From the NCBI GenBank assembly GCA_027339965.1, contig DAHWNL010000078.1:128001-192000 (forward strand): a stretch of DNA of 64,000 nucleotides. The letters are read 5' to 3'. The notes under the pieces are model-generated. The model was not told the DNA's origin. It searched no databases and saw only the letters and a program-made list of their open reading frames with translations. This DNA is from Granulicella sp. (GTDB lineage: Bacteria > Acidobacteriota > Terriglobia > Terriglobales > Acidobacteriaceae). Position 1 is the first letter of the stretch; the number at the start of each line of letters is the position of its first letter. Below are positions 2,025-20,390 of the stretch, one piece after another. The translations under genes were made by a program, and so were the position numbers.

Positions 2025-3383
2025 ATGAACTTTTCACCTTCGGGAGCCAATACAGTTCTATCGGTAGCAGCGATTTCGCTCCTGATCTCCGCATTCCCCA
2101 AGGGTGCAATAGCTGTCCCCAGTTATGCGCGCCAAACCGGCCTCCCGTGCATCGGGTGCCACGATGACCCGCCGGAGTTGAACCCTGAGGGGCGGCTTTT
2201 CAAGTTGCTGGCCTATGTGTAGGGAGCGAGCTTCCTCGGCTCCATAAATGCAAAGAGCAGCGGGAAGAATGCTGGTTTGGATCTTCTCCACGCACTGCCT
2301 CTTTCTGTCATGTTGCAGACCTCATACACTTCACTGAACAGTCCAGAGCCAAATACCCAAAATGGGAACTTTGAGTTTCCCCAGAACATCTCCCTGTTTC
2401 TCTCCGGTGCCTGGACGAGCAACGTCGGCAGTTACCTTCAGGTTACATACGACACCCAAGCCAATCACTTCGGTATGGACAATACCGACATTCGGTTCGC
2501 AAACCAGACAAAGGTAGATGGTAAGGATCTTGTTTACGGACTTGACTTCAACAACAATCCGACGGTAGAAGATCTCTGGAACGACACGCCGGCATGGGGC
2601 GTCCCATTGATTCAAAGTGACTTTGCGCCAACGCCGGCGGCTGTTCCCATCATCGATGGCCCTCTGGGCCAGGAAGTTGCCGGATTCGGTGGTTACACCA
2701 TGTGGAACAGCCATGTGTATCTGGACGTGACAGCCTACACCTCAGAGCACATTGGCGCCTCACAACCAAACTCCGGAAATGGTTTCTCGTACAACATCCG
2801 TAACGCTGCACCCTACTGGCGTCTTGCCTACCAAGGACAGACAGCCACGACGCAGTATGAGATCGGAACCTATGGCATGCATATGCGCAGCAGTCCTAAT
2901 TCAGTCGTCGGTCCCCAGGATGATTACACCGACTACGCTTTCGACACCCAAATTGACCAATCGGTGTTCCAGACAGACGTGCTCTCGTTCCGAGGCAATT
3001 TCATCCGGGAAAACTCCGATTTGCAGGCCAGCCTGAACCAAGGATTGGCTTCTCAAGGAGGAAACCATCTGAATACTGGCACGGCTAACGTCCAGTATCT
3101 TATTGGCAGCAAATATTCAGGTACATTTGAGTGGTTTGAAACAAACGGCACAACCGATCCTCTGCGTTATGCTCCCGCTTCTGTTACCGGCAGTGCCAAT
3201 GGAAACCCGAGGAGCGCCGGATACATTCTCAACTTCTCGTACTGGCCATGGCAAAACCTTCAAATTTCGCCCCAATACACTGCGTATACACGTTTCAACG
3301 GTGGTTCGACGAACTACGATGGTTCTGGACGTAACGCCAACGCCAATAATACGTTCTACCTGGATGTGCAGTTCCTCTTTTGA
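2025..3383 (+). pseudogene. Cyc2-like fused monoheme cytochrome c-porin, copy 2, interrupted by in-frame TAG at 2220-2222
   Basis: Signal peptide, then AVPSYARQTGLPCIGCH...PELNPEGRLFKLLAY (Cyc2 N-terminal signature). ORFs 2025-2222 and 2277-3383 share a frame. The linker after the TAG (GKNAGLDLLHALP) matches copy 1 (GKSAGLDLLQALP). Confidence 0.75.
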
Positions 3384-3482: not shown

Positions 3483-4911
3483 TGACCTGCTACCTGAAAG
3501 CTCTACCAGTTGGAACTGGAGTCCTCTCGTAATTGACCCGCCCCGCATGACTAAGCCAGAAGCGGCTGGAAAATCCGGCTTGCGTGGTTCGGTTCGGCCC
3601 GTGTTGACGGGCGGATTTGCAGATACTGTAGCTCAAGTGAGTGTCTCAAGTAACAGCGTTGAACCACTGTCGTTCTGCGCTGTGACAGCAGCCGTCGTCG
3701 TGCCATGGAAAAGTGGGAGGCGAGTAGCTGCTTCCACTTTTCCACGGCTGCAGATAGCCGCGAACTCCGCCGGTGTGCGGTCGTCCAGCGCAGAGTGCGG
3801 GCGCTGGTGGTTTGTAGTCGCGTCGCCAGAGGTGCAGCTTCCGGCGAGCGTCAGCCAGGTTCAAGGACACCTCCACGTTCAGGCACTCGTCGCGCAGCTT
3901 TCCGTTGAAGCTCTCGATGTAGTCGTTCTCTACCGGCCTGCCCGGGGGGATGAAGTTCAGATGCACACCGTTCCGATACGCCCAGTGGTCGAGCGCTTTA
4001 CTGGTAGATTCCGTTTCGTTGTCCACAGTGATCGACTCCGGCAGGCCGCGTTGCAGCAGCGCCTTATCCAACGCCGTTGCGACCTCCTCCCCGCTCAGTG
4101 TGTTGTCTGTCAGCAGCGTCACACACTCCCGCGTGTACTGGTCCACTACCGTCCGCACACGGATCCAACGCCCGTCCGGCAACCACTGCGCCACGAAGTC
4201 CATCGACCGCTTCTGGTCTGGCCGCAACGCCGATCCCTGCGCCACACGATGCCGCTGCGCGCGCTCCTTGCGCTTCTTCGTCCTCACGATCGGGCCCTCC
4301 TCGACGTACAGTCGGTAGATGCGCTTGGCGTTGACCTTCCAGCCTTCGCGCTTCAACAGCACGGTCAGCCGCCGGTAGCCGTAACGCACGCGGTTGCCGG
4401 CCAGCTCCCTCAGACGGATACGCAAGGCCTCCTGCCGGTCGCGGTGATGCTCGTAGCGCAGCGTCATCCGCTCGACTGAAATCAGCTGCGACACGCGCCT
4501 CTGGCTCATCCGGTGGACCTGCTGTGCCCACTCGGCCGGCTCGCGCCGCGCACGAGGCCTTACAGTTTTTTGCGACGATCTCCTGCGACACATGACGGTC
4601 CGGGTTCGGGTCCGCTACCAAACGCTTCGACTTCGCGTTCTCTTCACGCAACTGGAGCAGCTCCTGAAGCTCGTTCAGCCCCAACCCGGAAGACTTCTTC
4701 TTCCGCAAATAAAACGTCTGCTGGCTGATGCCGTGCTTCCGGCAAGCCTCGACCACCGTGTCGCCAGACGTGGTCTCCCGCAGCACCCGCAGAATCTCTT
4801 CCTCGCTGTGTCCACCCTTACCCGTACAGGTTCTCCTCTCTTGCTTCTCAGAGAACCACAACAGGCCAAATCCTCAACGTCAACTTGGCCTAGTTTTTGG
4901 GTTTTGGGTCA
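3483..4911 (-). mobile_element. Degenerate IS3-family element (IS407-like group), orfA/orfB
   Basis: orfA HSEEEILRVLRE...CRKHGISQQTFY...LREENAKSKRLVAD. orfB (3646-4593) RYGYRRL, SMDFV, ITVDN, PGRPVENDYIESFNGKLRDECLN (rve integrase). Imperfect TGACC terminal repeats at 3483 and 4906-4911. A-run at the orfA/B junction. Many conserved residues are mutated. Confidence 0.85.
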
Positions 4912-5070
4912 GATCGGACGTTTCCAATGGTGTCCGGACAATCTCCGGGCCAGGAGATCCGGCAAATCACCATGCATTCTAAGGTCTATCTAAATCTCCA
5001 TCTTTCGATGGAAGTAGGACGATAAACGACTGCCGTATAATTCAGTCTCTCCCAGAATGGAGCGGGCCTT

Positions 5071-5952
5071 GTGCACGCAAACCTCCAGGATGGCTTCGCC
5101 GATTCCCCGGATGCTTTAAAGGACGGGCAGCGGCAACGAACGATCATCCGGGTTCTCGGTATCGAAGTGGGTGGGGATGAGTTCGTCACCATGGCAGGGC
5201 CATGCTCGGTTGAAACCGAGTCCCGGCTCATGGCAACCGCTCATCATGTTCGCCGCTGCGGCGCGCGCATCCTTCGTGGCGGCGCGTTCAAGCCGCGCAG
5301 CTCCCCCTATTCCTTTCAAGGTCATGGTCTTCAGGCGCTCAGGACGCTCGCCCGCGCCCGAGCGGAGTTTGGACTGGCCATCGTCACCGAAGTCATGTCG
5401 GAAAGCGATGTCCCTTTGGTGGCTGAGTACGCTGACATACTGCAGATTGGCTCGCGCAGCATGGAAAATCTTCTCCTGCTCAAGGCTGCAGCGCAATCCG
5501 GGCGACCGATCCTTCTGAAGCGAGGCATGATGGCTACGGTTGCCGAGCTACTCTACGCGGCGCAGTTGATCCTGGAAGAGGGCAACCCCAACGTCATTCT
5601 CTGTGAACGAGGCATCCGCACCTTTGAAACATCGATGCGCAACACCTTCGATGCCGCGGCCATCGCATTGCTCAAGCAGATCTCGCACCTGCCCGTGATC
5701 GCCGACCCAAGCCACGCGGCCGGGCATCACGATCTGGTTCCCGCTTTGGCCCGCATTGCCGCGGCCGCGGGAGCGGACGGCCTGCTGGTTGAAGTGCACC
5801 CCGAGCCCGAGCAGGCGTGGAGCGATGGGGAACAATCCTTGGATTTTGCTGAATTCGAAGCCATGATGATTTCGCTGGACCCTCTTCTGGCGCTGCGCTC
5901 GACGGTTCCGGGCGCGCCCGTGGATGCAGGGTTCGTGGAGGTTGGTGGGTGA
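5071..5952 (+). CDS. aroF: 3-deoxy-7-phosphoheptulonate (DAHP) synthase, class I-beta, without N-terminal regulatory domain
   Basis: [47 protein letters not shown] and VEVHPEP motifs. Confidence 0.92.
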
Positions 5953-7367
5953 GGGGTTCTTTCTTCTTGTTTTTAGCCGCTCTCAGTGCTTTTGCGCCTT
6001 CGCCCTCACGTGCCCTGCCGCCCCGCATAGTCCACCAGACGGAAGCCGATTTTCTTGTCACCGCTGCTCCCGTCTACGTCCCCCTGGCAGAGATGCACGG
6101 GCGGGAGCGATTCCCCCGCGGAGCACGGTTGCTGCTGGTCCACAACGGCAAGGCCGCGCCCCTCGTGACCGGCTTCGCAGATACCGCGGACCCCGATCTC
6201 TCCTTCGGTGGCCAGAGGGTGCTCTTTGCCGGCAAGCGCACCACCGCCGATCCTTGGCAGATCTGGGAGCTCAACCTCAAGAACGGCTCGTTGCGGAACG
6301 TCATCAGCACCGGAGTCGATGCCGAGCGACCGCTGTATCTGCCGGGCGGACGTATAGTCTGGGCGCAACGCACGGCCTCTGGATTCCGGATCGAGTCGGC
6401 TCCGGACGGCCATCCTCCCAAGGTACCGTTCCTGAACCCGACCGCCGGTCCCGGAGTGCTGCCCCTCACCTACATCCAGACCAACGCCTTTCCCACCACC
6501 ATCCTGGCCGACGGCCGCATTCTCTTCGAGTCCGGCTATCCGCTCGGAGAAGGCGCAGCCACTGACTTATTTGCGGTCTACGCTGATGGCTCGGGCGTGG
6601 AGGAACTCCGTCCCTATCAAGGCCGCTCCCGCTGGGGTGGCTCGCAACTGGCCTCCGGTGACGTGGTGTTCTCCCATGGAAGGTCGCTGGCGAGGCTCAC
6701 CTCCGCGCTGCTGCAGGAGGAGCCCATTGCCGCCCCCCAGGCCGCCTACGCCGGCACAATCGAGGAGACGCCTTCCAGCGAATGGTTGCTGAGTGCGCGC
6801 GCGACCGGCCAGACGCACTATGCAATTGATCTGTGGAAGCCCGGAACCGCTGCACTCCAGACCATCCTTTCAGAACGCGGCGAGGATCTTGTCCAGCCTG
6901 TCCTGCTGGCGCCTCGTACCCCGCCCAGACGATTCCCTTCAGACCTCCACCCTTGGAACTACGCCAATCTTCTGGCCCTCGACTCGCGCCTGTCCATGGA
7001 AGGCAATCTGAAATTGGCGCCCGCATCGGTCCGCCTGGAGAGCCAGGATCCGAATGGCCACATCCACAACAACGGAACCGCTCCGATCTATCCCGACGGC
7101 TCCTTCTTTGTGAAGGTTCCTGAAAACCTCCCGATTCGCTTCCTCCTCCTCGATAAAAATGGCGCCGTTCTGCGTCGCGAACGCGGGTGGTTCTGGAGCC
7201 GCGGCGGCGAACAGAGGATCTGCGTCGGATGCCATACGGGACCGGCACTCTCTCCTGAAAATCAAGTGCCTGAAGTGCTGCTGCACACCACTACCCCGAT
7301 GGACCTCACGCTTGACTCACCTCGCACACCCACGCGCACTGAGGTGCAGAAAGGTAATACGAGATGA
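5949..7367 (+). CDS. Secreted hydrazine synthase alpha-subunit-like protein (propeller plus HZS-alpha middle domain, one CxxCH)
   Basis: Signal peptide. TolB-like blade (ADPDLSFGGQRVLFAGK...WQIWE). DGSFFVKVPENLPIRFLLLDKNG...WFWSRGGEQRICVGCH is characteristic of the HzsA middle domain. GTGA overlap with aroF. Confidence 0.75.
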   Translation: MRGSFFLFLAALSAFAPSPSRALPPRIVHQTEADFLVTAAPVYVPLAEMHGRERFPRGARLLLVHNGKAAPLVTGFADTADPDLSFGGQRVLFAGKRTTADPWQIWELNLKNGSLRNVISTGVDAERPLYLPGGRIVWAQRTASGFRIESAPDGHPPKVPFLNPTAGPGVLPLTYIQTNAFPTTILADGRILFESGYPLGEGAATDLFAVYADGSGVEELRPYQGRSRWGGSQLASGDVVFSHGRSLARLTSALLQEEPIAAPQAAYAGTIEETPSSEWLLSARATGQTHYAIDLWKPGTAALQTILSERGEDLVQPVLLAPRTPPRRFPSDLHPWNYANLLALDSRLSMEGNLKLAPASVRLESQDPNGHIHNNGTAPIYPDGSFFVKVPENLPIRFLLLDKNGAVLRRERGWFWSRGGEQRICVGCHTGPALSPENQVPEVLLHTTTPMDLTLDSPRTPTRTEVQKGNTR

Positions 7368-9130
7368 TCCTTCGCTCCCTGCTTCTTTTCTCTGCCGCCG
7401 TCTCGATCGCCGCAGCACAAAAAGCAGCGCCGCCGGCAAGATCCACCACGGATACCGCAAAAACAGCGGGACAACCTACCATCCGCTTTGAAGATGCTAC
7501 TGGGCAGTCCGGAATCCACTTCGTTCACAGCTTCGGATCCGCCAGGCTCAGTTCGCTGCTCGAAGGCACCGGAGCCGGCTGCGTATGGTTCGACTACAAC
7601 CACTCCGGCCGCAAGTCGCTCTTCGTCGTCAACGGAAGCACCCTTGACCCAGGCATGACGCACAACCCTCTGCCAACAAAGCCTGACCCGGCTCCGCATG
7701 CGCATCTGTACCGTAACGACGGGAACGGCCATTTTACTGATGTGACCGCTCAATCCGGCCTCGATCCCGATCTGTACGGTGACGCCGTCACCGTCGCTGA
7801 CTACGACAACGACGGCTATGACGACCTGCTCGTCACCGGCTACGGCAAAGTGATCCTCTACCACAACAACGGCAACGGCACGTTTACCGACGTTACCCGG
7901 CAAAGCGGCATCAAGGTTACCGGCTGGGCTATCGGCTCCACATGGCTGGACTACGACCGCAATGGCTGCGTCGATCTCTTCGTCGGCCGTTACGTCAAGT
8001 TCGACCCCGAATACCACTCGTATTATGCGGCCGATAACTATCCCGGGCCGCTCAACTATGCCGGCGAGTCCAACATGCTGTTTCACAACAACTGCGACGG
8101 CACGTTTACCGACGTCTCGGATAAGTCGGGAATCAGCGCCTTCGTGGGCCGCACCATGGGAGTGACCGCTGCCGACTTCGACAACGATGGCTGGGACGAT
8201 ATCTACGTCACAAATGACGATACGCCCAACTTTCTTTTCCACAACATGCACAATGGCACCTTCCAGGAGATTGCCAACAACGCTGGCGCAGCCTACGGAG
8301 AAGATGGCGAAGCCACTTCGTCCATGGGTCCCGTCGCAGCCGACTTCTGGAACCGCGGATTGTTAGACCTCTGGGTAACCGATGGGAGTTACAACCGCTT
8401 TCTCAAAAACCTGGACGCTCCGCAACTCGGGTCTTCCTCTGCCCATTCGGATTGGCATGGCTTCCAGGATGTTACCGCGGCAAGCGCCATCTCCCAGGTC
8501 GAAGCGCAATACGTCAGTTGGGGCACCGGCGTCTACGACTTTGACAACGACGGGCTGCTGGACATCCTGGTCTTTCACGGTGGCCTGACCCACATGATTC
8601 CAATGGAGCACACCCTCTTCCGCAGCCTGGGCAACGGCAAGTTTGAGGATGCCTCCCGCCAGGCAGGCCCCGTCCTGAGCGTACGTACTGTAGCCCGCGG
8701 AGCCTGCTTTGCCGACTACCGGAACGATGGAAAGGTTGACGCCTACGTGGTCAATCTCGGGTCGGAGGGAACGCTGCTTCACAACGTCTCTACCAACACC
8801 GGCCATTGGGTTGAAATCAAGCTCGTCGGCGCCATGAGAAAGGGCGATGCGGGTATACCCGTCGGAGATCCTGGAGCACGGAGCAACCGCGACGGCATCG
8901 GCGCTCGCATCCAGGTCGTCACCGGCGATGTGAGGCGCTCTGCGGAGCGAGTAGCCAGTTCCGGCTATCTCTCCCAGAATGAAGGACGCGTCCACTTCGG
9001 CCTGGGTACCGCTACGACCATTGACAAGCTGGTCGTCCGTTGGCCCAGCGGGATTGTGCAGACGCTCACGAACCAGCCGGCGGATCGCGTGCTCACGATA
9101 GCGGAACCGGGAAGAGGGGAGGCGCAATGA
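7364..9130 (+). CDS. CRTAC1-family protein (FG-GAP/VCBS repeats plus ASPIC/UnbV domain)
   Basis: Repeated DYDNDG/DFDNDG Ca-binding blades, LYRNDGNGHFTDVT. C-terminal SNRDGIGARI...GYLSQ...VHFGLG...VRWPSG. Confidence 0.9.
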   Translation: MILRSLLLFSAAVSIAAAQKAAPPARSTTDTAKTAGQPTIRFEDATGQSGIHFVHSFGSARLSSLLEGTGAGCVWFDYNHSGRKSLFVVNGSTLDPGMTHNPLPTKPDPAPHAHLYRNDGNGHFTDVTAQSGLDPDLYGDAVTVADYDNDGYDDLLVTGYGKVILYHNNGNGTFTDVTRQSGIKVTGWAIGSTWLDYDRNGCVDLFVGRYVKFDPEYHSYYAADNYPGPLNYAGESNMLFHNNCDGTFTDVSDKSGISAFVGRTMGVTAADFDNDGWDDIYVTNDDTPNFLFHNMHNGTFQEIANNAGAAYGEDGEATSSMGPVAADFWNRGLLDLWVTDGSYNRFLKNLDAPQLGSSSAHSDWHGFQDVTAASAISQVEAQYVSWGTGVYDFDNDGLLDILVFHGGLTHMIPMEHTLFRSLGNGKFEDASRQAGPVLSVRTVARGACFADYRNDGKVDAYVVNLGSEGTLLHNVSTNTGHWVEIKLVGAMRKGDAGIPVGDPGARSNRDGIGARIQVVTGDVRRSAERVASSGYLSQNEGRVHFGLGTATTIDKLVVRWPSGIVQTLTNQPADRVLTIAEPGRGEAQ

Positions 9131-11178
9131 ATCGTCTCGGACGAGGCCGACGCCAGCTACCATCCCATCCGGTGGCAGCTCTCTCTGCAGCACTTGCGGC
9201 GCTGCTCCTTGTTCTGCCGTGGCCCGGCCGCACCGTCCGCGCCGCCACTGCTTCTCCAGCCAGCCCGCTGCTGGGCTACGCCTCTCCGGTGGAGTTGCTG
9301 TTTTCGCCCGACGCAACGCGGCTTTATGTCCTCTGCCAGGATAGCGGCGAGGTGCGCGTGCTGAACGCTACAACCTACGCCCCCACCGCAACCATCGACG
9401 TGGGTCATGTGCCACGCGGATTCTTTCTCTCTCCCCATGGGAACAGGCTCTTCGTAACCAACTCCTGGGACGACACCCTTTCGGTCATCGACACCCGCGC
9501 ACTGAAAGTGGTGGCTACATGGCATGTCGGAATGGAGCCATCGAGCGTCATTGAGGGGCCTGCAGGCAAGCATCTCTATATCGCCAATCGCATCAGTAAC
9601 GACGTTGCTGTGCTGGACGCCCATACCGGCAGTGAGATCAAGCGACTTGCAGCCGGACGCGGAGCAAGCTACATGGCTCTCTCCCCCGATGGGCGGCGCA
9701 TCTACGTCTCTCATGTCTACCCCAACCCTACTCCTTACCGCACCCCGCCGGAGTCGGAGTTGACGGTGATTGACACGGCTACAGCAGAAGTGGTCCATCG
9801 TCTTCCTCTGCCCAGCATCGCCGGCGCCTTTCATATCGCGTTTACCCCCAACGGCAGCCTGGGCGTACTGGCGGAGATGCACCCCAAGAACATGGTTCCG
9901 GTCACCCAGGTCGAGCATGGCTGGGCCTTTGAAGATACACTCGAACTCTTTGGCTCCGCTGTACCGCATCAAGCAGTCGAAGTGCCGCTGGATGATCTGG
10001 ACAGCTATGCGGTGCGCCCCTTCGGCGTCGCCATCACGCCGGATGGTTCACGCCTTTACGTGAGCTGCGGTGGCTCGGACATCGTTACCGTCATCAACCT
10101 GTGGAACCTGCGCCGTTATCTTCACACCCACAGCGGGCCAATCGCGTATGATCTTGCCGCCAGCGCCCATTACGTCGTAGCCAGAATCTCCGTGGGCCAC
10201 GATCCACGCGGTGAGGTCGTCAGCGCCGATGGCCGTCGGTTGCTGGTAGCGAACCGGCTGGATGACACCATCAGCGTGATCGACACCGCCACCGGCAAGG
10301 TGGTCACTACCATCCCTCTGCCCCCATCCAGGCATCTGTGGGCAGAACGCTTCGGCCTGCAGATGTTCGCTGAGATGACCAACCCCTCTCCGGGGATGAG
10401 ACGTTGCCCAGCCTGCCATATCGACGAGCGCCATCGCAATGCTCAGAAGATGAACCTGACGCCACAGCAACTGCTGGCCGCCCTGCGGCGTGGCCAGCAG
10501 GCCTTCTATAGCGCGAACTACTCCTTTCATGGCGGCATGGGCTGTGCCAACTGCCACGTCGATACCACCATGGATGCGCTGTTGTGGAACTTTGAACCGG
10601 CTGGCCTGGGCCGGAACATCGTAGAAAACATGCTTCTGGAGGACATCCGCAACACCGCGCCGTACGATTGGACGGGCGTCAACCCCAACCTGCCCACCCA
10701 GTGCGGACCTCGTACCGAGTTATTCATCTGGCGCTCCCAGAACTACAACGCCCGCACCCTCGCTGATACAGCCGCCTATCTGAACAGCCTTCCGTCCCGG
10801 CCCAACCGCTGGCGTCTGCCCAACGGTCAATTCAGCCCCGCGCAGGAGCGCGGCCGGCAGATCTTTGATCGCACCGTAGACGACTTCGGCAAGCCCATCC
10901 CGCTGACCAACCGCTGCAACTTCTGTCACAGCGGTCCGCTGGGCACGGATAGCAGGAAGTTCGATGTAGGAACCAAAGGACCGTACGATACTACGGGGTT
11001 GTTCGTCACAGCGCAGTTGACTAACGTCGCACTCACCGCACCTTACCTGCATGACGGCTCTGCAGCAACCCTCGAAGAGATATGGACCACCCACAACCCG
11101 CATGACCAGCACGGTCGCACCAATGACCTGACCAAGAACCAGCTCAACGACCTGATCGACTACCTGCGGACCCGATGA
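9127..11178 (+). CDS. YVTN beta-propeller fused to cytochrome c peroxidase-like domain, three CxxCH (HzsB/HzsC-like architecture)
   Basis: ATGA overlap at 9127. LFVTNSWDDTLSVID and LLVANRLDDTISVID blades. CPACH, CANCH, CNFCH. NTAPYDWTG, ERGRQIF and TAPYLHDGSAATLEE CCP/MauG-type motifs. Confidence 0.85.
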   Translation: MNRLGRGRRQLPSHPVAALSAALAALLLVLPWPGRTVRAATASPASPLLGYASPVELLFSPDATRLYVLCQDSGEVRVLNATTYAPTATIDVGHVPRGFFLSPHGNRLFVTNSWDDTLSVIDTRALKVVATWHVGMEPSSVIEGPAGKHLYIANRISNDVAVLDAHTGSEIKRLAAGRGASYMALSPDGRRIYVSHVYPNPTPYRTPPESELTVIDTATAEVVHRLPLPSIAGAFHIAFTPNGSLGVLAEMHPKNMVPVTQVEHGWAFEDTLELFGSAVPHQAVEVPLDDLDSYAVRPFGVAITPDGSRLYVSCGGSDIVTVINLWNLRRYLHTHSGPIAYDLAASAHYVVARISVGHDPRGEVVSADGRRLLVANRLDDTISVIDTATGKVVTTIPLPPSRHLWAERFGLQMFAEMTNPSPGMRRCPACHIDERHRNAQKMNLTPQQLLAALRRGQQAFYSANYSFHGGMGCANCHVDTTMDALLWNFEPAGLGRNIVENMLLEDIRNTAPYDWTGVNPNLPTQCGPRTELFIWRSQNYNARTLADTAAYLNSLPSRPNRWRLPNGQFSPAQERGRQIFDRTVDDFGKPIPLTNRCNFCHSGPLGTDSRKFDVGTKGPYDTTGLFVTAQLTNVALTAPYLHDGSAATLEEIWTTHNPHDQHGRTNDLTKNQLNDLIDYLRTR

Positions 11179-11191
11179 AAGGACAGTGAAG

Positions 11192-12283
11192 ATGAGAGGG
11201 GTGCTCAACAAGCTTTGCCTGGGCGTGGCGTTTGCGGCCTCTGCGGCCTCAGCGTCTGCCGTGGCGCCAAAGCCGCCCGAAGTGCCACACTACCGCTTTG
11301 TCAACTACACCGTCGCGAACGGCCTGCCCAACAATCACGTCTACTCGGTTCTGGTGGATGGAAGCCGCGTCTGGGCTGGTACGGACGATGGCCTCGGCCT
11401 CTATGAAAATGGCAGGTGGAGAACTTTTACCACCAGGGATGGCCTGGCGCAGCAAGCCGTGCTCTCGCTGGCGCTCGACAAGCAGACCGGCGACGTGTGG
11501 GCCGGAACGATGGGTGGGCTGAATCGCATCTCCGGCGGCCGCATCATCGCTACCTACACACAATTGAACTCAGGACTCAGCAACGATATCGTGTACGGTG
11601 TATCCGTGGAAGGCAGGAATGTGTGGGTTGCCACAGCCGCCGGAGCCTGCCGGCTGAACCTGGATACGAACCAATGGTCGATCTATACCGACGAAAATAC
11701 CCCCATGAAGGAGATCTGGGTCTACGGCGTCTCAGCCGCATCGGACAAAGTCTACTTCGCTATCTGGGGAAGCGGTCTGCTCGAATATAACCAGCAAACC
11801 AGGCTCTGGGATATCTACGATGACCCCGACCACGAAACCGATCTTGTGCTCTTCAAAAACCAGGGGCTCATCCACGACATCGTATCTTCCGTCAGTTATG
11901 TTGATAAGACCGTCTGGGTCTCCACTTACTTCGGTGCCAGCCGCTACAACGGACGGTATTGGCATAACTTCCTCACCAAAGATAGCGGCCTGCCCTCGAA
12001 CTTCATCAACTACCTGAAGGCAGCAGACGCTAATCATGCGTGGTTCTGCACTGACCAGGGGCTGGCGTTCTATGACGGAGTCAGCTGGGCCGTCTACACG
12101 CCATCGCTCGCCACCGGCAAGCCGGAGATGTGGATGCGCGACGCCCAGGCTCATATCACCCACATTCCCGTCACCACCGCACCCGCCAGCAATTACTGCC
12201 TCGGTATCGATTTCCAGGGCCGCGATATCTGGGTCGCAACCGCCGGCGGACTAAGCCACGGAATCTTCCAACCGCAACCATAA
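11192..12283 (+). CDS. Secreted beta-propeller protein (two-component regulator propeller repeats)
   Basis: Signal peptide. Repeats NGLPNNHV...VWAGTDDGL, DGLAQQAV...VWAGTMGGL, SGLSNDIV and SGLPSNFI. Alternative GTG start at 11186. Confidence 0.8.
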   Translation: MRGVLNKLCLGVAFAASAASASAVAPKPPEVPHYRFVNYTVANGLPNNHVYSVLVDGSRVWAGTDDGLGLYENGRWRTFTTRDGLAQQAVLSLALDKQTGDVWAGTMGGLNRISGGRIIATYTQLNSGLSNDIVYGVSVEGRNVWVATAAGACRLNLDTNQWSIYTDENTPMKEIWVYGVSAASDKVYFAIWGSGLLEYNQQTRLWDIYDDPDHETDLVLFKNQGLIHDIVSSVSYVDKTVWVSTYFGASRYNGRYWHNFLTKDSGLPSNFINYLKAADANHAWFCTDQGLAFYDGVSWAVYTPSLATGKPEMWMRDAQAHITHIPVTTAPASNYCLGIDFQGRDIWVATAGGLSHGIFQPQP

Positions 12284-12295
12284 GGAGGTATCACT

Positions 12296-12796
12296 ATGAG
12301 CCCATTGACTGAACTTCTCGAGAGCATTGCCCACGCACCGGTCAGGAAACACGCCATTACCAACTACGGCGTACTGAATGAAGCCTACTGCTATGACAAG
12401 CCGAGTTCCTTTTCACGCGGCATGAGAATCGATCTCGGCCAGGTATCTATCCTGCTCATCTCCGGCACGGCTTCCATTGACGAGCACGGCAAGAGCGTCC
12501 ACATCGGTGACTTCCGCGCGCAGATGCGGCGCACGCTTTCCAATATCACCGGCTTGTTGGCCAGTGAAGGCTGCACCTGGCACGATATCGTACGGACCAC
12601 CTGCTACCTGCGAGACATCGAGCGCGATTACGAGGCATTCAACGAAGAACGTACAGCGTTTTACAAACAACTTGCACTCGACCCTCTGCCCGCTTCGACC
12701 GGCATTCAGGCAATCCTCTGCCGGCCGGAGCTGCTGATCGAAATCGAGGCCATCGCCATGTTCCGCAACGTTCAGACGGCCACCGCCAGGGAGTAG
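12296..12796 (+). CDS. Rid (YjgF/RidA-fold) protein resembling the catalytic domain of Hyg5/FkbO chorismatases
   Basis: SFSRG, LLISGTASIDEHGKSVHIGD...Q...TLSNI and AILCRPELLIEIEAIA motifs. Strong RBS TAAGGAGG. Confidence 0.8.
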   Translation: MSPLTELLESIAHAPVRKHAITNYGVLNEAYCYDKPSSFSRGMRIDLGQVSILLISGTASIDEHGKSVHIGDFRAQMRRTLSNITGLLASEGCTWHDIVRTTCYLRDIERDYEAFNEERTAFYKQLALDPLPASTGIQAILCRPELLIEIEAIAMFRNVQTATARE

Positions 12797-12801
12797 CCGC
12801 G

Positions 12802-14964
12802 ATGGTACAGAGATGGTTCGAGCGTTCTCCCTGTTACCGGGTACTCCGGGGAGAGCGAGTCGGCGCGTTTTCCGTTGGAAAAACCCATGCTCCTGTCGAT
12901 GCCCCGCGTTACCCCTGCCGGGGAGTCGCTCCAGCGGCCGCGGCCTGCCTTTGCCTGGCAGGCGTTACGCTTGCTTCTCGGGCTCAGCAGGCGCATCCGT
13001 CTCCGGCTGTGCCTCCTGCTCCACCGGCTATTTCCCACGCAACGGACTCCTGGTGCTCCTGTGGCGCTCATCCACCCGGCCCGGAACCGCTTTGGACTTC
13101 CAGGCCCTACGCCAATGTTCCACCGGACATGAAGCCCTACGCCAGGTTCGCCAAACCGTACTATCACTACTACACCCAGCCGACCATCTGGAACGGGCCG
13201 GGGCGCGATACACCCGCTCCCGCAAATCTCACCGAGGTGCGCATAGGTTTCGTCGGCCCCATCTCCCCGACCGATCCTGATTACACCATGGGTATGCGCA
13301 TGTTGCATGGAGTGCAGTTGGCCGTGGAAGAGGCAAACGCCCGTGGCAGCTACGGAGGCAAACCTTTCCGCCTGATGCTGCACGACGACTACAACAACTG
13401 GCAGGCAGCGGCGGTCGCCGGCCAGGCTCGTCCTACCAATCCTGCCATCTGGGGCGCTGGCTTGGATCCAGCCGTCAAGTGCATCTACGACGACAAGGAC
13501 TGGGCCATCTTCGGCTCCATCAACTCAGAGACCACCCACGAGATGTTGCGCCTCTCCCTCAAAGCCGAAATCCCCATCGTCAACTCGGCTTCCACAGACC
13601 CCACCATCCCGGAGACCTCCGTCCCCTGGTACTTCACTGATCTCCAGGATGACCGCGTCCAGGACTACACGCTGGCGCGCCGCATCTACACCGAACTGGG
13701 CCTCCAGCGGGTGGCTATCCTGCGCGTCAACAACCGCTATGGCCGCATGGGCGTCTTCAAATTTCGCGATGTCTCGCGCCGACTCGGCCATCCCGTAGTC
13801 ATCGAACAGACATTCGCGGCTGGAACCACGGACTTCACGCAGGAACTGAGAAGCATCCAGGACTCGCGCGCCGACGCCATTCTGCTTTGGAGCGATGAAG
13901 CCCCCGCGGCAATGATCCTGCGGCAGATGCGCGCCATGGGGATGAAGCAGCGCGTCTTCGGCTCATATCGCACGCTGGGCCCCACCTTGCTGGCTCAGGC
14001 AGGTCCGGCGGCAGAGGGGTTTGAAGCTGCGTTTCCCTATGATCCCAACCGCAACAACCCGCGGTGGCTCGCCTTCAATCGCCGCTTCGAAGCCCGCTTC
14101 CACGAACCGCCCGATTCGCTTGACTCCCTGGCCTACGATGCCATGAACATCCTGCTCGACGCCATCTGCAGGGCGGGCCTGAATCGTGTGCGCATTCAGG
14201 ACGCGCTAGACAACGTGCGGCAGTACGACGGAGTGACGGGGCACATGGTCTTCGATCCTAACCAGAAGAACGTAGCTCCCATGTACCTGGGCACGGTGCA
14301 CCATGGCGCCATCACCTACCGGCTCGCCCCACTTTCGGAGCTACCCCTTGCCGGGCAGTCCACAGGCGCCCAGGCTCAGGCCAGCCAGAAGCCTGCTCTC
14401 CATCCCGCGGCAGTGCCCATTCCCTATGCACGCGTCGGTGAGGATGGCATCCATTATTTCGGGCCGACACAGCCCAGCATACCGCTCGGCCCGGTGCGCG
14501 CCATACTCATCGGGCCCCAGGCTCAAAAACTGGCACAGTCGCCCGCGATCAAGGCGGAGTTGGCTGCTGCCGCGCAAAAGGGGCGCGCCTGGATGCTGCT
14601 GCCTGTGGACAGCGACCAGCAGTGGGGCGCTGCATCCACCCAGTTGGTTCGTGACTTGTGGAACGAACACCCTCTGGCAATCATTGCTTTCGGCAGCAAA
14701 GCCGGTCATCTGTCGGAACAGTTGGCGCTGAAGACCTTTGTCCCGGTTGTGGCCGTCTCCGACGACCGGACTCTGACCTCCGCGGCCGTGCCATGGATCT
14801 TCCGCCTCCCGACGGGAACCTCCGCGGTGGCCGCGCTGCATCTCCTCGCAGACGCTGAGGCTCGCGGAGGGCCCAATCCCGAACGGGTCAGGAATGTGCT
14901 GGCCTCGGGAGATCTGATCTCAGGATTCGCATTTCTTCCCAGCGGAGATCTGCGCAAGCCATAA
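12802..14964 (+). CDS. Type I periplasmic (branched-chain amino acid-like) substrate-binding protein with duplicated C-terminal lobe
   Basis: VRIGFVGP, GVQLAVEEANARG, NNRYGR, TDFTQEL, LAYDAMNIL and DGVTGHMVFD motifs. Start codon uncertain. Confidence 0.8.
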   Translation: MVQRWFERSPCYRVLRGERVGAFSVGKTHAPVDAPRYPCRGVAPAAAACLCLAGVTLASRAQQAHPSPAVPPAPPAISHATDSWCSCGAHPPGPEPLWTSRPYANVPPDMKPYARFAKPYYHYYTQPTIWNGPGRDTPAPANLTEVRIGFVGPISPTDPDYTMGMRMLHGVQLAVEEANARGSYGGKPFRLMLHDDYNNWQAAAVAGQARPTNPAIWGAGLDPAVKCIYDDKDWAIFGSINSETTHEMLRLSLKAEIPIVNSASTDPTIPETSVPWYFTDLQDDRVQDYTLARRIYTELGLQRVAILRVNNRYGRMGVFKFRDVSRRLGHPVVIEQTFAAGTTDFTQELRSIQDSRADAILLWSDEAPAAMILRQMRAMGMKQRVFGSYRTLGPTLLAQAGPAAEGFEAAFPYDPNRNNPRWLAFNRRFEARFHEPPDSLDSLAYDAMNILLDAICRAGLNRVRIQDALDNVRQYDGVTGHMVFDPNQKNVAPMYLGTVHHGAITYRLAPLSELPLAGQSTGAQAQASQKPALHPAAVPIPYARVGEDGIHYFGPTQPSIPLGPVRAILIGPQAQKLAQSPAIKAELAAAAQKGRAWMLLPVDSDQQWGAASTQLVRDLWNEHPLAIIAFGSKAGHLSEQLALKTFVPVVAVSDDRTLTSAAVPWIFRLPTGTSAVAALHLLADAEARGGPNPERVRNVLASGDLISGFAFLPSGDLRKP

Positions 14965-15133
14965 GTCCCCGCTTCGCCTACGTAGCAAAAGAACCACTGG
15001 CTGGAGCCAGTCCGGAGAAAGTGGCCGCATAGGGAAGACAACCTCCTTCCTCCCGGGGACGGTCTCCAGCGGTCGGGTACCTCTGTACCACTGGTCGTGC
15101 TGGCAGATTGGCGTTTGCAGCGCCGGCAAACGC

Positions 15134-16263
15134 GTGAGCGCTCAACGAAGCCCAGGGTCAGAGCGCGGCGAGTTCGGCCATGGTCGTGTCGTGGCGTAGC
15201 TTCCACTGGTCGGGGAGCCACAGGTCGAGGTCGGCGTCGGGCGTGACCGGCAGGTTGGTAAGCAGTTGGGTGAAGTAGATCTGCGGGTCGACCGCGTGGC
15301 GGCGGCAGGTCGAGGTCAGGCTGGAATAAGATGGCTGCCGTACGTCCGCCGCGCGGGTTGCCGACGAAGAGGCTGTTCTTCCGGTTTAGAACCACGCGCT
15401 TCATCTCGCACTCGCTGACACGATTGTCCAGCGGTATGGCGGGGTCGAAGAGGAAAACAGTCATCTCGGGCCATTGCCGGAGGGCGCAGCCGACAGCGTC
15501 GGCCATGGGATGCTTGGGCAGCAGGTACTCTTTCCAGCCAAGCAGCTTCTCGCGCGGCGCCGAGTGCTCCCCGCGCAGCGCCAGTCTGGCCGCAGGCTCC
15601 AGATCTTTTGCCTTGCGTTCGACCGCGTAGAGCGCGCGCACGTACTCGACCGCGGCAGCGGCGATCTCGGGAGCGGACTTTTCGGCTTCGACGAATCTTC
15701 TTTTCAGATGCGCCCAGCAGCCGGCGTGCGTGATGCCGTTGCGGGCGACAACTCCGTTGTAGCCGTCGTAACCATCGGAGAGCGCCAACTCGGCAGTCCC
15801 ATCATCCCCACCCTTGCTCTCCCACGGCGACCGGCATCGCTTCCAGCACCCGAATCACCGCGCAAAGTTGATCGCCGTCAAATCCAGGCCCCACCAGAAG
15901 GCTGCGCCCACCGCAAAGGGGAACTTCGATGGTAGACCTGTTCGAGCCCAACGAACTGCCCTCGGTCGGCTCCGCTTGAAGAGCCGGTGACTGGCGACTG
16001 GGTTTTTTCTCGCGAATGCCCCAACGACCGCAACCTCAACAAAACCGTCTGCCGCTCCATCCCTCAACCTCGGCCGCCAGGCGTAAAACCGCCCAACGCG
16101 CAGATCGCGTGCTCGGCAAAACGCCGCCACGCTCGCGCCGCTCATCTCCTGATCTCGAACCTGCTCCCGCCAAACCACCTACTCCGTCTTATCATGACGC
16201 CGCATGGGTCGAGTCTTACGCACCTCGACATCCCGCACAAGATGGCCTTCGTTGAGCGCTCAC
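15134..16263 (-). mobile_element. Internally deleted IS66-family element (tnpA remnant plus 3' part of tnpC)
   Basis: 17-bp perfect terminal inverted repeat GTGAGCGCTCAACGAAG at 15134 and 16263. tnpC motifs SDGYDGY, AGCWAHLKRRF, PLDNRVSE and LNRKNSLFVG. tnpA-like SGASVAAFCRARDLRVGRFYAW. Confidence 0.85.
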
Positions 16264-16286
16264 GGAATTTCTGCTCGATCTGAGGG

Positions 16287-17132
16287 TCAAGTCAGTACCG
16301 TCACCGGACCGCGACCCCTCCAGTTCGGGAAGGGAGACTGGCTGGCTCGCCGCAGTCGTCCTATCATCTCCCGCAGGCGATGGCGTCTGGCAAGCAGCGT
16401 AACTACAAGCAACTCGAGTCGATGGAGATCCGCCCCATGCCATTCTGGCGGCATGGTTTGGGCCAAGCTCCACAGAATGTCGGGGTCAAACTCTTCCATC
16501 CGGCTGAGCCATGGTTCGAAGCTGTTCCACCCGGTCACCCCAGCATAGACTCTATTGTCTGTGCACCTTCCTAGGAGTGGGGTGTCCTGAAACTCCCAAC
16601 GGCTGCCGCTGAAGCAGGACCCCTGATCGATGAACAGAACACGATACTCGGGCTCTTGCGCATTGCGTAGAAAGATGGCTTGGCGACGGTCGGTGTTGCC
16701 GGTCCATTGGTCGAAGGCGAGCATGGGGGCGAACTCACCTAGATTGCATACATTGCGGAGCCACTCGCCAGGCAGGAGATCAAAGGCTTGCTGATGCAGA
16801 ACCCCAGCGCCGAAACGGCTTCCGAACTGCAAGCCGCTAGCGCATCTCTCCCAACGCTGGTCTCCATAATGAATGATGAGTTGCGGACTGCGTTCGATCA
16901 GCCATTCACTGACCTGGATCATTCCCGTCCTCGGCACGGACAGCCCCACCACCTCTGCCATGCGGTTAGCCAGAAACTCATTGGCCGGTACCCGGGGATG
17001 CTGGGGATTATTCTTGAACTTAACCACCCACACTGCGTGGTCTTCACCCAAGATCAACTTGCTCTGCGAACCGCCTCGCAGGGAGGAGATCGCGTGCATC
17101 GCCCTTATCGGCGTCTCTTGGAAAGGCCCCAT
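16287..17132 (-). CDS. HipA-like (HipA_2 type) protein kinase
   Basis: LRGGSQSKL, WVVKFKNNPQHPRVPANEFLA, FDQWTGNTDRR and FIDQGSCF motifs. Start uncertain (ORF is open to 17303). Confidence 0.8.
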   Translation of the reverse strand: MGPFQETPIRAMHAISSLRGGSQSKLILGEDHAVWVVKFKNNPQHPRVPANEFLANRMAEVVGLSVPRTGMIQVSEWLIERSPQLIIHYGDQRWERCASGLQFGSRFGAGVLHQQAFDLLPGEWLRNVCNLGEFAPMLAFDQWTGNTDRRQAIFLRNAQEPEYRVLFIDQGSCFSGSRWEFQDTPLLGRCTDNRVYAGVTGWNSFEPWLSRMEEFDPDILWSLAQTMPPEWHGADLHRLELLVVTLLARRHRLREMIGRLRRASQSPFPNWRGRGPVTVLT

Positions 17133-17848
17133 CTGTCTGGCCGGCTGTCCGGTCAGCGTAGAAACGGCTTCTGAAGCCCCATGCGCTGTCTCCGCCAAGG
17201 GGTTCAGCGATGCTTTGCTCTCCATCCGTCGGGAGGCGCACAATAAGGGTTCTACAGACGCGTCTACTGTCACACTCTGCCACGCGCTCGCTCCCATAAG
17301 CACACACCTCTAGGTGTTAATCGGAGAAAGAAGGTGTATCATGAGATGTGTCGCAATTTGGAGCATCCTTCGCCCAGATTCCATCGCAGTCCGCCGCCCG
17401 ATACCCTCCGCGCTTCCAGTCTGATCCCAGCCAGCGCATGAAGGCCCTCCAGTGGGTTGTCATTCTTCCAACCCATGCTCTTGTTCGCTAAACCGAGCTC
17501 GGGCCTCCACTCTGCCGTCCACAGGTTCGTGGCGACTGTTGGTCGGATCCAACCGCCCCGCTCTAATGCCGGCTTGTTCGGAAATTCCCAGTTCTTTCCT
17601 GGCTCCTTATGCTTGTCAGCGCCAGTTCTTGCCTGAAAGCGCTCTCCAAGTGCGTACCTGGATCTTCACTTCTCTGAGCCTGCCAACAGCCTCGCAACCG
17701 ATCCCCGGCAACAATTCTTCCTCGCCCTCGGAGCCGGCAACACGGAACCAGAGTCCTCTGCGGAGATGAGCGGTCTACTCTCTCTATCCCACTCAGGACT
17801 GGTCTCAGTCACCACCCTTTCATCCGCGGAGATCCAGGATCTTCGTCT

Positions 17849-17864: not shown

Positions 17865-17976
17865 TACGATCGCCCTTTTCGTGCCGCCCAATAAGGCAAC
17901 ATCGAATTGTCCTCCCGAGATTCACCCTCTAGAGGGCCGGTTCGCTGCAATTGCCGGGCGAAAGCGACATCGCTTG

Positions 17977-18450
17977 ATGAAAAACTTCCGGGATTCGGAA
18001 CATCTGCTCAGATTCGCCTTTCTGTTTGCGATGGTGCTCGCCCTCTTTCTAATCGTGCGCCACTTCGTCGTGCCCAAGAGTTTCGGAGAATACGGCCACT
18101 ATCGCGGGGCTGCCATCGGCGAGACCGCCGCACGGCCGATTCACTTCGCCGGACAATCCGCCTGCGCAACCTGCCACACGGACATCGCGGCAACCAAACA
18201 GGCCGGCATGCACGCTGGCGTTCACTGCGAAGCTTGCCACGGGCCTCTGGCCAAGCATGCCGCCGATCCGGCATCCGTTCAGCCGCCCAAACTTGACACC
18301 GCAGTTTTGTGCGTCCGGTGCCATGCAGCCAGCGCCGCCAAGCCGAAGAACTTCCCCCAGGTAGCCGCGGCAGAGCACTCCGGCGGATTGGTCTGTGAGA
18401 CCTGCCACCACCCCCACAGCCCTGCTATTCAAAGTGAAGGCGCCAAATGA
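17977..18450 (+). CDS. Membrane-anchored tetraheme cytochrome c
   Basis: N-terminal TM helix; CATCH, CEACH, CVRCH, CETCH. Confidence 0.9.
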   Translation: MKNFRDSEHLLRFAFLFAMVLALFLIVRHFVVPKSFGEYGHYRGAAIGETAARPIHFAGQSACATCHTDIAATKQAGMHAGVHCEACHGPLAKHAADPASVQPPKLDTAVLCVRCHAASAAKPKNFPQVAAAEHSGGLVCETCHHPHSPAIQSEGAK

Positions 18451-19181
18451 ATCTCAGTCGACGTCAATTTCTCGTGCTGGTGCCAGCCACGGCTGTCGCA
18501 TGGCAGTATGTGCTTGCCGGCACCCCCCGGGATGCCCCTAACTACCAGCTCGCCGACCACTGGTGGGGCATGTTGCTTGATATCACCAAGTGCATCGGCT
18601 GCGGAAACTGCGTCCGCGCCTGCCAGGCAGAGAACGATGTCCCTGACGGATACTTTCGCACCTGGGTCGAACGCTACCTCAGAACCGATTGGAATCTGAC
18701 CACCCCGGAGGTCATCTCTCCCGACGGCGGCAAAGAAGGCTTCCCGACCGCCGAAGAGGTCAAGGATGGCATGTACTTCTTCGTTCCCAAGATGTGCAAC
18801 CACTGCGCCGACTCTCCCTGTACCCAGGTCTGTCCCGTAGGAGCCACCTTCATCACCCCGGACGGCGTCGTCCTCATCGACCAGACCTACTGCCTTGGCT
18901 GCGCCTACTGCGTGCAGGCCTGCCCCTATGGGTGCCGCTATATTCACCCTACAAGACACGTCGCCGACAAGTGCACGCTCTGCTATCACCGCATCACCAA
19001 GGGCCTTACCACGGCCTGCTGTGAGAACTGCCCCACCGGGGCGCGTCAACTGGTCGATCTCAAAAACCCCAATGATCCCATCCATGCCTTTTTGAAGACG
19101 CATGACGTGCATGTCCTCAAGCCGGAGATGGCAACGGGAGCAAAGGCCTTTTACAACGGTTTGGATGGCTCGGTGCGATAA
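18447..19181 (+). CDS. Tat-exported 4Fe-4S dicluster protein (NrfC/PsrB/DsrO-like)
   Basis: SRRQFL Tat motif; CIGCGNCVRAC, CNHCADSPCTQVCP, CLGCAYCVQACP and KCTLCYHR...C..CP. Confidence 0.92.
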   Translation: MNLSRRQFLVLVPATAVAWQYVLAGTPRDAPNYQLADHWWGMLLDITKCIGCGNCVRACQAENDVPDGYFRTWVERYLRTDWNLTTPEVISPDGGKEGFPTAEEVKDGMYFFVPKMCNHCADSPCTQVCPVGATFITPDGVVLIDQTYCLGCAYCVQACPYGCRYIHPTRHVADKCTLCYHRITKGLTTACCENCPTGARQLVDLKNPNDPIHAFLKTHDVHVLKPEMATGAKAFYNGLDGSVR

Positions 19182-19199
19182 AAGGAGGAACGGACCATT

Positions 19200-20390
19200 A
19201 TGGGCGGCGTCGAAGGCTACATGTATCCCAATGAGATCAATCTGTACTGGAGCGTCCTGATCGTCGTGTACCCCTACGTCACGGGACTGGTCGCAGGCGC
19301 CTTCATTCTGGCATCCCTGGTCCGCATCTTCAACGTGAAAGAGGTCGCCCCGACCTATCGGCTCGCTCTCTTGACCGCCTTGGCGTTCCTCATTGTGGCG
19401 CCCTTGCCGTTGCTGCTCCACCTCGGTCATCCCGAGCGCTGTTTTGAGATGTACTTCACCCCCCATGACACCTCGGCCATGGCCATGTTTGGCTACGTCT
19501 ATATCTGGTACCTAATGGCTGTGCTGTTGTTCGAGATCTGGCTTGACTTCCGCCATGACATCATCCTCACCGCCCGCTCCTCAAAGGGCCTCAAGCGAGC
19601 CTTCTATGTCCTGCTGAGTCTGGGCTCGAATAACACCAGCGAGCACTCTCTCGCCGTCGATGAACGTGCCGGATGGATCGTCACTCTGATTGGCATTCCT
19701 TCCGCCTTCCTTCTCCACGGATACGTTGGCTTCATCTTCGGTTCCATCAAAGCCAATCCGTGGTGGAGTTCACCCCTCATGCCGGTGGTCTTCATCTTCT
19801 CCGCCATGGTCTCCGGCATCGCTCTGGTGCTGCTGGTCTATATGTTCACCACACGTGCGCGCCATCGCGAAATCGACATGCCCTGCGTGGACACCATCGC
19901 CAGGTATCTCCTCTATATCTTCATCATCGACTTTGTCATGGAGATGCTCGACCTGGTCCATCGCATCTATGTCGCCGACGAGAGCTTCCGTTCCATCAAC
20001 TTTATGGTCCACACCAAACTCTACTTCTCCCAGATTGTCCTTCAGATCTACATCGGAACCCTGGTACCGCTGATCCTCCTGGGCATCGTTCAGGTGACCA
20101 GACTCTCCCCATCCCTGCGCAAGGCCATCTATGCCCTTTCGGCTGCACTGATCGAGATCGCAGTGGTCTCCATGCGCTGGAATGTGGTCATCGGCGGGCA
20201 GCTCTTCTCCAAAAGCTTCCTCGGATATACCACCTACAAGATCGGCCTGATTACTCACGAAGGGCTGTTCATGGCCGTCTTCCTCACCCTGCTCCCGCTG
20301 GCCTTCCTGTGGGTCCTGGTCAAGATACTTCCCCCTTGGCCGGAGCTCAAGCGGGGTATGAATCGCGTCGCAAGTGTAACCATGCCATAA
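19200..20390 (+). CDS. NrfD/PsrC-family integral membrane quinol oxidoreductase subunit
   Basis: WSVLIVVYPYVTGLVAG, HLGHPER, TSAMA, YVGFIFG...NPWW and MRWNVVIGGQ motifs; multiple TM helices. Confidence 0.9.
   Translation: MGGVEGYMYPNEINLYWSVLIVVYPYVTGLVAGAFILASLVRIFNVKEVAPTYRLALLTALAFLIVAPLPLLLHLGHPERCFEMYFTPHDTSAMAMFGYVYIWYLMAVLLFEIWLDFRHDIILTARSSKGLKRAFYVLLSLGSNNTSEHSLAVDERAGWIVTLIGIPSAFLLHGYVGFIFGSIKANPWWSSPLMPVVFIFSAMVSGIALVLLVYMFTTRARHREIDMPCVDTIARYLLYIFIIDFVMEMLDLVHRIYVADESFRSINFMVHTKLYFSQIVLQIYIGTLVPLILLGIVQVTRLSPSLRKAIYALSAALIEIAVVSMRWNVVIGGQLFSKSFLGYTTYKIGLITHEGLFMAVFLTLLPLAFLWVLVKILPPWPELKRGMNRVASVTMP

Follow-up and report, generated by a model that had tools for sequence, protein, structure and literature searches.

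Organization of the operon

The window analyzed here, a 64,000-nucleotide stretch of a Granulicella sp. assembly (GCA_027339965.1, contig DAHWNL010000078.1, positions 128,001 to 192,000 of the forward strand), contains seven co-directional open reading frames (ORFs), denoted g1 to g7, at window positions 5071-14964. These genes encode homologs of the alpha subunit and of the fused beta and gamma subunits of hydrazine synthase (HZS), together with three additional proteins predicted to be exported and two enzymes with a likely link to aromatic metabolism (Table 1). An initial annotation, made from the sequence alone, delineated the same seven genes, and its coordinates and domain calls agree with the ORFs and with the Pfam and NCBIfam matches.

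Three pairs of adjacent genes overlap by 4 bp, at positions 5949 (GTGA), 7364 and 9127 (both ATGA), and the remaining intergenic gaps are 7, 12 and 5 bp long. A sigma-70-type promoter for the operon and a clear terminator 3' of g7 were looked for, and neither was found. Three RNA runs compared with the stretch matched only through short foreign pieces and are neutral with regard to expression. Hydrophobic N-terminal stretches without any internal span were detected in g2, g3, g4, g5 and g7 by a crude hydropathy scan, on which the export calls are based, rather than on a signal-peptide predictor. Genes for cytochrome c maturation were found in the same genome.

Table 1. Genes of the operon and associated features, with positions in the window
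Feature	Position	Strand	Description
g1	5071-5952	+	DAHP_synth_1; type I-beta DAHP synthase without N-terminal regulatory domain; reads as cytoplasmic
g2	5949-7367	+	Short HZS-alpha homolog; hydrophobic N-terminus, beta-propeller, middle domain with one c-heme
g3	7364-9130	+	CRTAC1-like FG-GAP propeller with ASPIC/UnbV; predicted exported, Ca-binding
g4	9127-11178	+	Fused HZS beta-gamma homolog; YVTN propeller and CCP_MauG
g5	11186-12283	+	Stand-alone Reg_prop propeller; predicted exported
g6	12296-12796	+	One-domain Rid-fold protein with Hyg5-type chorismatase residues; predicted chorismate-cleaving trimer; reads as cytoplasmic
g7	12802-14964	+	Peripla_BP_6; LivJ/HAAT-type binding protein with second, shorter binding-protein-like part
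Palindromic insert	12822-12935	.	114 bp, in frame, in the signal-peptide region of g7; from pairwise alignment
IS3-type transposase remnant	3646-4861	-	Left flank, context only; rve and HTH_21, from ORFs
IS66-type transposase remnant	14706-16264	-	Right flank, context only; DDE_Tnp_IS66; repeats elsewhere in the genome

Conservation of gene order and distribution

The gene order is conserved across loci, and the operon is thus real rather than a chance arrangement. All seven genes were found in the same order in 22 of the 26 metagenome loci with full flanks, which came from 80 loci picked by g6 and are close kin (73-86% identity). Full-length g4 fusions were present in 11 of 60 relatives, where g2-g7 were kept in all 11 cases and g1 in 10; the record titles of the close relatives of g4 are Acidobacteriaceae or Terracidiphilus. 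Among 38 loci that include an alpha gene or a beta-gamma gene, a set assembled partly from loci selected because they have g6 and partly from loci selected because they lack it, we detected g4 in 38, g3, g5 and g7 in 37 each, and g2 in 36, the misses falling at locus or contig edges or in places not examined. A g6-type Rid was represented in 33 of the same loci and DAHP synthase in 29. The invariant core therefore consists of the five exported proteins, with the aromatic pair, g1 and g6, as a strong, not obligate, neighbor. Genes for an amidase, a TPR-CRTAC1 protein, a GMC oxidoreductase and sugar enzymes lie near the operon in close relatives and are not conserved across clades. At one locus (L100:8775-9975), g1 is joined to g5 by an apparent deletion of g2-g4, and g6 and g7 are still there.

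Of 300 evenly drawn Acidobacteriota genomes, 16 gave a match to g6 and 40 to PF18582 (HZS_alpha) (28 of the 45 PF18582 places were examined; the other 17 scored below 49 bits). The cluster occupies 17 loci in 16 of these genomes, and the fetched stretches include a Rid in 12 of the 17 and DAHP synthase in 9. A g6-type Rid, with one or three domains, is encoded somewhere in 15 of the 16 cluster genomes vs 5 of the 284 others. Among 200 Planctomycetota genomes, g6 was found in 11, adjoining a beta-gamma gene in seven, only a DAHP synthase in two, and neither in the remaining two. The initial annotation had called for a survey of gene neighborhoods, and the genes indeed co-occur across genomes of two phyla. 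With the cluster present in 16 of 300 Acidobacteriota genomes and in Planctomycetota, what it does is relevant to the redox chemistry of soil and peat.

Homology of g2 and g4 to hydrazine synthase

The product of g2 matched PF18582 with 56.5 bits, above the Pfam cut-off of 26.6, and its direct sequence match to HZS alpha is weak (E 6e-8). The AlphaFold model of g2 (pLDDT 91.9) retrieved HZS alpha (5c2v_A) as the top Foldseek match (E 8e-21, TMq 0.76), followed by TolB (E 3e-9, TMq 0.52); in a wide VIA-align search with the same model, 5c2v was absent from the top 50, which held generic propellers only (TolB, Z 25.2). Residues 53-389 of g4 aligned with HZS beta (5c2v_B; E 8e-33), the long insertion region included, and the C-terminal part of g4 aligned with HZS gamma (5c2v_C; E 1e-15), ahead of every peroxidase among the PDB matches. 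These profile and structure matches substantiate the homology to alpha and to fused beta-gamma that had been proposed for the locus.

The NCBIfam models for HZS were matched far below their cut-offs, with 40/800 (NF052339, g2), 149.5/1250 (NF052342, g4), 136/560 and 63.9/625 bits, that is, 5-24%. The initial annotation made no claim of anammox activity, and this caution is well founded, given these scores and the missing equivalents of four HZS residues, Tyr591, Cys303, His144 and Asp168. In HZS alpha, Tyr591 is a heme ligand, and His587 and Cys303 hold zinc, as described in the text of PMC12758564. The 472-aa g2 has a single CxxCH motif (C425/C428/H429), and the C-terminal alpha-II cytochrome domain is not present; an equivalent of Cys303 was not found in g2 since it has no Cys outside the heme motif. 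The position of Tyr591, four residues past the heme His, is Ala in g2 and was Tyr in none of the 70 alpha homologs in our motif survey. A search of the genome for HAO/HDH family members gave no match, and the control was silent too, so that this search is uninformative. Matches to PF18582 or to hzs-like genes alone are a poor ground for calling anammox.

Heme sites of g4

There are three CxxCH motifs in g4, at residues 427, 473 and 597. We mapped the residues of HZS gamma by hand on the alignment with 5c2v_C (offset 39; chain index 63 = Cys102). Heme gamma-I of g4 is assigned to C473/C476/H477, with C526, W515 and R529, and heme gamma-II to C597/C600/H601. The position of HZS gamma His144 corresponds to W515, which is Trp in all 37 beta-gamma rows, and that of Asp168 to R529, which is Arg in 36 of 37, with the reservation that the register may slip by one, to T530, not an Asp either. 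The position of Cys165, the third covalent Cys on heme gamma-I of HZS, corresponds to C526, with Cys in 22 of 37 homologs, Asp in 11 and Gly in 4; it is Gly in the g4 of the second operon copy in this genome (see below). The beta insertion loop aligns with that of HZS and contains two candidate Glu residues for a ligand, both at positions that vary in the family.

His662 shows no variation across the 24 rows compared and lines up with HGRT, a motif of HZS gamma; heme gamma-II is therefore likely to be bis-His, with H662 as the probable second ligand. With the di-heme CCP/MauG/MbnH superfamily, g4 shares the fold, the inter-heme Trp and the TAPYLHDG motif. The second heme of that superfamily is Met- or Tyr-ligated, in contrast to the likely bis-His heme of g4, which is further distinguished by the propeller fusion and by membership in a multi-gene unit. 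The distal Met position of CCP is variable in the g4 family (H/Y/F).

Relationship to published clusters

The initial annotation suggested that an enzyme of this architecture may be uncharacterized; for the architecture this does not stand, as the core of the operon (short alpha, CRTAC1, beta-gamma and binding proteins) is already in print, with its function unexplained. The text of PMC12758564 (Hagglund 2025, Genome Biol Evol) describes four clades of co-located non-anammox alpha and beta-gamma homologs, rejects a hydrazine-synthase reading of them, and includes Terracidiphilus savannae (Acidobacteriaceae) in the alpha tree. Clades I and II in that account flank a CRTAC1 gene, with binding-protein genes downstream; clade II alpha proteins are short; key HZS residues are missing; the beta-gamma proteins have no extra heme motif in clade II and one in clade III. 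Clusters resembling hzs in Phycisphaerae are reported in the text of PMC10732223, where alternative substrates are suggested.

By gene order and architecture, we assign the core to clade II. The operon shares with the clade II cluster, as presented in the text of PMC12758564, the order alpha, CRTAC1, beta-gamma with binding proteins downstream, the short alpha without heme alpha-II, the lack of Tyr591 and Cys303, and Trp at the gamma His144 position; it differs in the third CxxCH of its beta-gamma, at 427, and in the fusion of its two binding proteins. With anammox HZS (PDB 5C2V), the operon has in common the alpha propeller and middle domain, the beta propeller with the long insertion region, the two-heme gamma fold, a Cys at the Cys165 position (variable among homologs) and, probably, the bis-His second heme. 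A fused beta-gamma is found in Ca. Scalindua HZS (NF052342), too. The Tyr-ligated, Zn-neighbored alpha-I site, the alpha-II domain, and gamma His144 and Asp168 belong to anammox HZS only, whereas the operon alone adds three further exported proteins and two enzymes of an aromatic pathway.

The linker heme (C427/C430/H431) is lineage-specific. In a tree of 37 beta-gamma rows, built in a quick version without bootstrap and without the sequences of PMC12758564, the eight three-heme rows adjoin two-heme rows of the same gene order (SH-aLRT 95; group support 100) and stand apart from a three-heme group with the CRTAC1 gene first. Because of this grouping, the third heme reads as a recent gain inside clade II. 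In the beta-gamma proteins P0073, P0107 and P0120, this position of the linker is occupied by another CxxCH insert, which is longer, and hence linker hemes may have arisen repeatedly. In some loci, the beta-gamma proteins of relatives have 6 to 10 hemes.

The origin of HZS is open, and its non-anammox relatives are functionally unexplained, according to the text of PMC12758564. The operon joins this published kind and adds to it a likely chorismate link, the lack of a permease, an Arg at the distal position and a third heme, which make the function testable. DAHP synthase and chorismate are unmentioned in the text, as distinct from the figures and full supplement, of PMC12758564 and PMC10732223, as is the Rid gene in the former, and a literature search, conducted mostly outside subscription journals, yielded no description of any of the four additions.

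The aromatic pair

The product of g1 scored 352 bits with TIGR01361 (cut-off 267.75) and retains the DAHP synthase motifs AGPC, KPR, DPSH, EVH and SDG. The AGPC motif is at residue 42, 51 residues past the upstream stop; the housekeeping DAHP synthase, encoded on another contig (C54), has a long N-terminal extension that g1 lacks. DAHP synthases without the N-terminal regulatory domain escape feedback, and g1 is likely free of feedback control.

The g6 product is a one-domain, 166-aa protein of the Rid fold with the Hyg5-type residues Y33, F39, R41, G57, R119, C142 and E149. G57, C142 and E149 are invariant in 18 of 18 rows, and the invariant Y33, F39, R41, SGTA, C142 and E149 are also invariant in two proteins annotated by NCBI as FkbO/Hyg5. 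The spacing of G57, C142 and E149 equals that of G231, C318 and E325 in Nat-hyg5, a proven 3-hydroxybenzoate synthase according to the text of PMC7170507. The position of RidA Arg105/107 is occupied by Ser134 in g6, invariant in 15 of 15 rows; imine hydrolysis by RidA requires that arginine, as stated in the text of PMC4433059. The FkbO/Hyg5 chorismatases (TIGR04444; PDB 4BPS, 5A3K, 5AG3) share with g6 the Tyr and the FxR, SGTASI and CR...ExE motifs; they consist of three domains and about 340 aa, as opposed to a single domain in g6, which scores far under the family cut-off.

In four cluster loci, g6 is replaced with a longer Rid. Three of these longer Rids were aligned and scanned, and have a three-domain FkbO/Hyg5-like build (TIGR04444, 30-43 bits), with NxxR and PASTG in the middle domain and SGTAS and CR...E in the last one. 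All four motifs are united in the one domain of g6, the set that a homotrimer would need. When one of the three-domain substitutes was compared with PDB sequences by phmmer, the solved chorismatases were absent from the matches listed; the profile of g6 did match them, at low rank. Together with the neighborhood counts, the chorismatase residues of g6 and its three-domain substitutes make a link of the operon to an aromatic compound likely, in line with the aromatic substrate suggested initially.

A three-domain Rid with the same motifs was also found in Parabacteroides distasonis (NZ_OY725768.1; L168:2501-9621), where genes for a di-heme oxidoreductase, an imelysin and two porins stand in the same row. 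This is a second case of a chorismatase-like gene adjoining a di-heme enzyme.

Exported partners

Six Asp-rich loops of the FG-GAP type are present in g3, and the conservation survey of g5 revealed abundant conserved Trp and Tyr residues; an Atlas look-up of g5 and g6 gave generic names only. The counterpart of g7 is two separate genes in many relatives. Some of the weaker PDB matches of g7 are proteins that we take to be aromatic-acid binders of Rhodopseudomonas. The HAAT permease (PF02653) had no matches in the genome, which is 98.86% complete, with the control positive in 12 of 14 cases, and for this reason g7 is unlikely to serve import. The palindromic insert in g7 forms a predicted hairpin of -22.4 kcal/mol, is absent from the second copy of the operon, and has two weak copies elsewhere in the genome, on contigs C41 and C24. 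It may impair export of the g7 encoded in the window.

Proposed function and alternatives

The reading that we favor, tentatively, is that the operon encodes a heme oxidoreductase complex of the periplasm, for which a hydroxybenzoate made by the cell itself serves as substrate or mediator. Under this proposal, g1 would raise the shikimate flux free of feedback, and a g6 trimer would cleave chorismate, most likely to 3-hydroxybenzoate. The acid would reach the periplasm, where the permease-less g7 would hold or present it. Electrons would enter g4 at the putative bis-His heme (H601/H662) and proceed via W515 to heme gamma-I; the linker heme and the 6- to 10-heme forms elsewhere would lengthen this path. 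Arg529 would line the open face of heme gamma-I, an arrangement suited to activating peroxide or a small N-oxide. A second site would be provided by the His-ligated heme of g2, where the aromatic compound could be transformed or cycled as a mediator, and g3 and g5 would act as scaffolding propellers. The likely feedback-free DAHP synthase and the chorismatase-like Rid offer a concrete, cheap entry point to the candidate substrate via a 166-aa protein.

Several observations weigh against this proposal. In overall sequence and fold, g6 resembles RutC/RidA-type proteins (Z 16.2) more than chorismatase 5a3k (Z 13.1, rmsd 5.6), and its TIGR04444 score of 32.7 bits is far under the cut-off of 325. 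No Rid was found in 5 and no DAHP synthase in 8 of the 17 fetched cluster stretches, and in five genomes with g6 the cluster was not detected. The statistic for the association between g6 and the cluster is overstated, because kin are not independent. An exporter, a ligase or a prenyltransferase is not conserved in the operon among the loci surveyed, and the annotations of the top PDB matches of g7 are those of proteins that bind amino acids.

The initial annotation also raised N-N or N-C coupling. N-N coupling chemistry is less likely, because the residues that HZS uses for it are missing. A variant that retains the two-site logic of HZS, where gamma-I would reduce NO to the hydroxylamine level and the alpha heme would couple it to hydroxybenzoate with formation of an N-C bond, is a long shot. 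If true, it would represent an undescribed periplasmic pathway of a specialized metabolite, supplied by the first chorismatase with a single domain, and the chemistry that gave rise to hydrazine synthesis.

The most serious alternative, less probable than a hydroxybenzoate-using oxidoreductase and still a real contender, is that the heme complex serves respiration or detoxification as a reductase of NO, hydroxylamine or peroxide, with the aromatic genes co-regulated and supplying, for example, a quinone precursor or redox shuttle. The entry heme, probably bis-His as in HZS, where gamma-II has a potential of about -310 mV (text of bioRxiv 2023.01.22.525020), and the beta-gamma proteins of relatives with 6 to 10 hemes are compatible with such a role. 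So are the separation of the aromatic pair from the core in several 10-heme loci and the position of lone g6 genes, one of which is near a UbiA gene, with several adjoining multiheme cytochromes. A reductase leaves unexplained why a binding protein without a permease is kept in 37 of 38 loci, and Asp168, tied to gamma-I chemistry in HZS, is nearly always Arg in this family.

Less plausibly, the operon could be a signaling module, in which g1 and g6 make a hydroxybenzoate signal, g7 and g5 are sensors, and gas or redox state is read out through the hemes. The diffusible factor of Xanthomonas is such a hydroxybenzoate signal, the folds of g5 and g7 serve as sensor domains, and the permease was not found. 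The operon has no conserved gene for a kinase, a receptor or a protein that spans the membrane, however, none of the exported proteins has an internal hydrophobic span, and the two conserved heme sites and the invariant inter-heme Trp look catalytic.

That g6 is an ordinary damage-control Rid, next to an incidental DAHP synthase and a heme complex unrelated to aromatics, would agree with its closest solved relatives by sequence and fold, which are of the RidA/RutC type. This explanation is improbable given Ser134 in place of the arginine of imine hydrolysis (text of PMC4433059) and the substitution of three-domain chorismatase-like genes for g6; moreover, the association of g6 with DAHP synthase persists in the absence of the heme genes, the two adjoining each other away from these in seven loci. 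Still less probable is that g4 functions alone, as a cytochrome c peroxidase or a MauG-like enzyme: g4 matches CCP_MauG and has TAPYLHDG and the inter-heme Trp, but the distal Met position is variable, the second His of HZS gamma-II has its counterpart in the invariant His662, HZS gamma is the top match of the domain in the PDB, and in 36 of 38 loci g4 is accompanied by an alpha-like gene. That the operon encodes a true hydrazine synthase of an unrecognized anammox organism, an idea raised for the Phycisphaerae homologs in the text of PMC10732223 and consistent with the real homology of all three subunits, is highly improbable in view of the replacement of Tyr591, His144 (Trp) and Asp168 (Arg), the confinement of Cys in g2 to the heme motif, the low NCBIfam scores, and the rejection of this reading in PMC12758564.

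Second copy and genomic surroundings

The whole operon is present twice in the genome. The second copy, on contig C81, shows about 81% nucleotide homology, which spans window positions 4992-14967 and thus matches the ends of the operon. The copy in the window lies between the IS3 and IS66 remnants, and the C81 copy keeps the upstream neighbor of the amidase family seen in relatives. Rough dN/dS values between the copies are 0.11-0.22 for the five genes of equal length, from which we infer that both copies are under purifying selection.

Two tandem cytochrome-porin genes precede the operon on the plus strand, at positions 1-1122 (beginning 254 bases before the window) and about 2100-3383; both have an N-terminal PSYARQTG-CxxCH, and the second contains an in-frame stop just past the heme motif. 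Presumably, these are cytochrome-porins of the Cyc2 iron-oxidase type. Just upstream of the window (G000:C70:120100-127600), genes for a flavoprotein, a cytochrome b-like pair, an 8-heme cytochrome and a monoheme protein form a row, the adjacency of which to the operon is not kept in relatives. Downstream, a gene for a HipA-like kinase (16287-17303, minus strand) adjoins the IS66 remnant and is followed, on the plus strand (17881-20390), by genes for a tetraheme cytochrome c, an NrfC/TtrB-like 4Fe-4S protein and an NrfD-like membrane protein, with no adjoining molybdoenzyme. The window further encodes an ordinary 1953-aa surface protein with Ig-like and propeller repeats (31868-37729) and an ordinary F-type ATP synthase operon (53469-59064).

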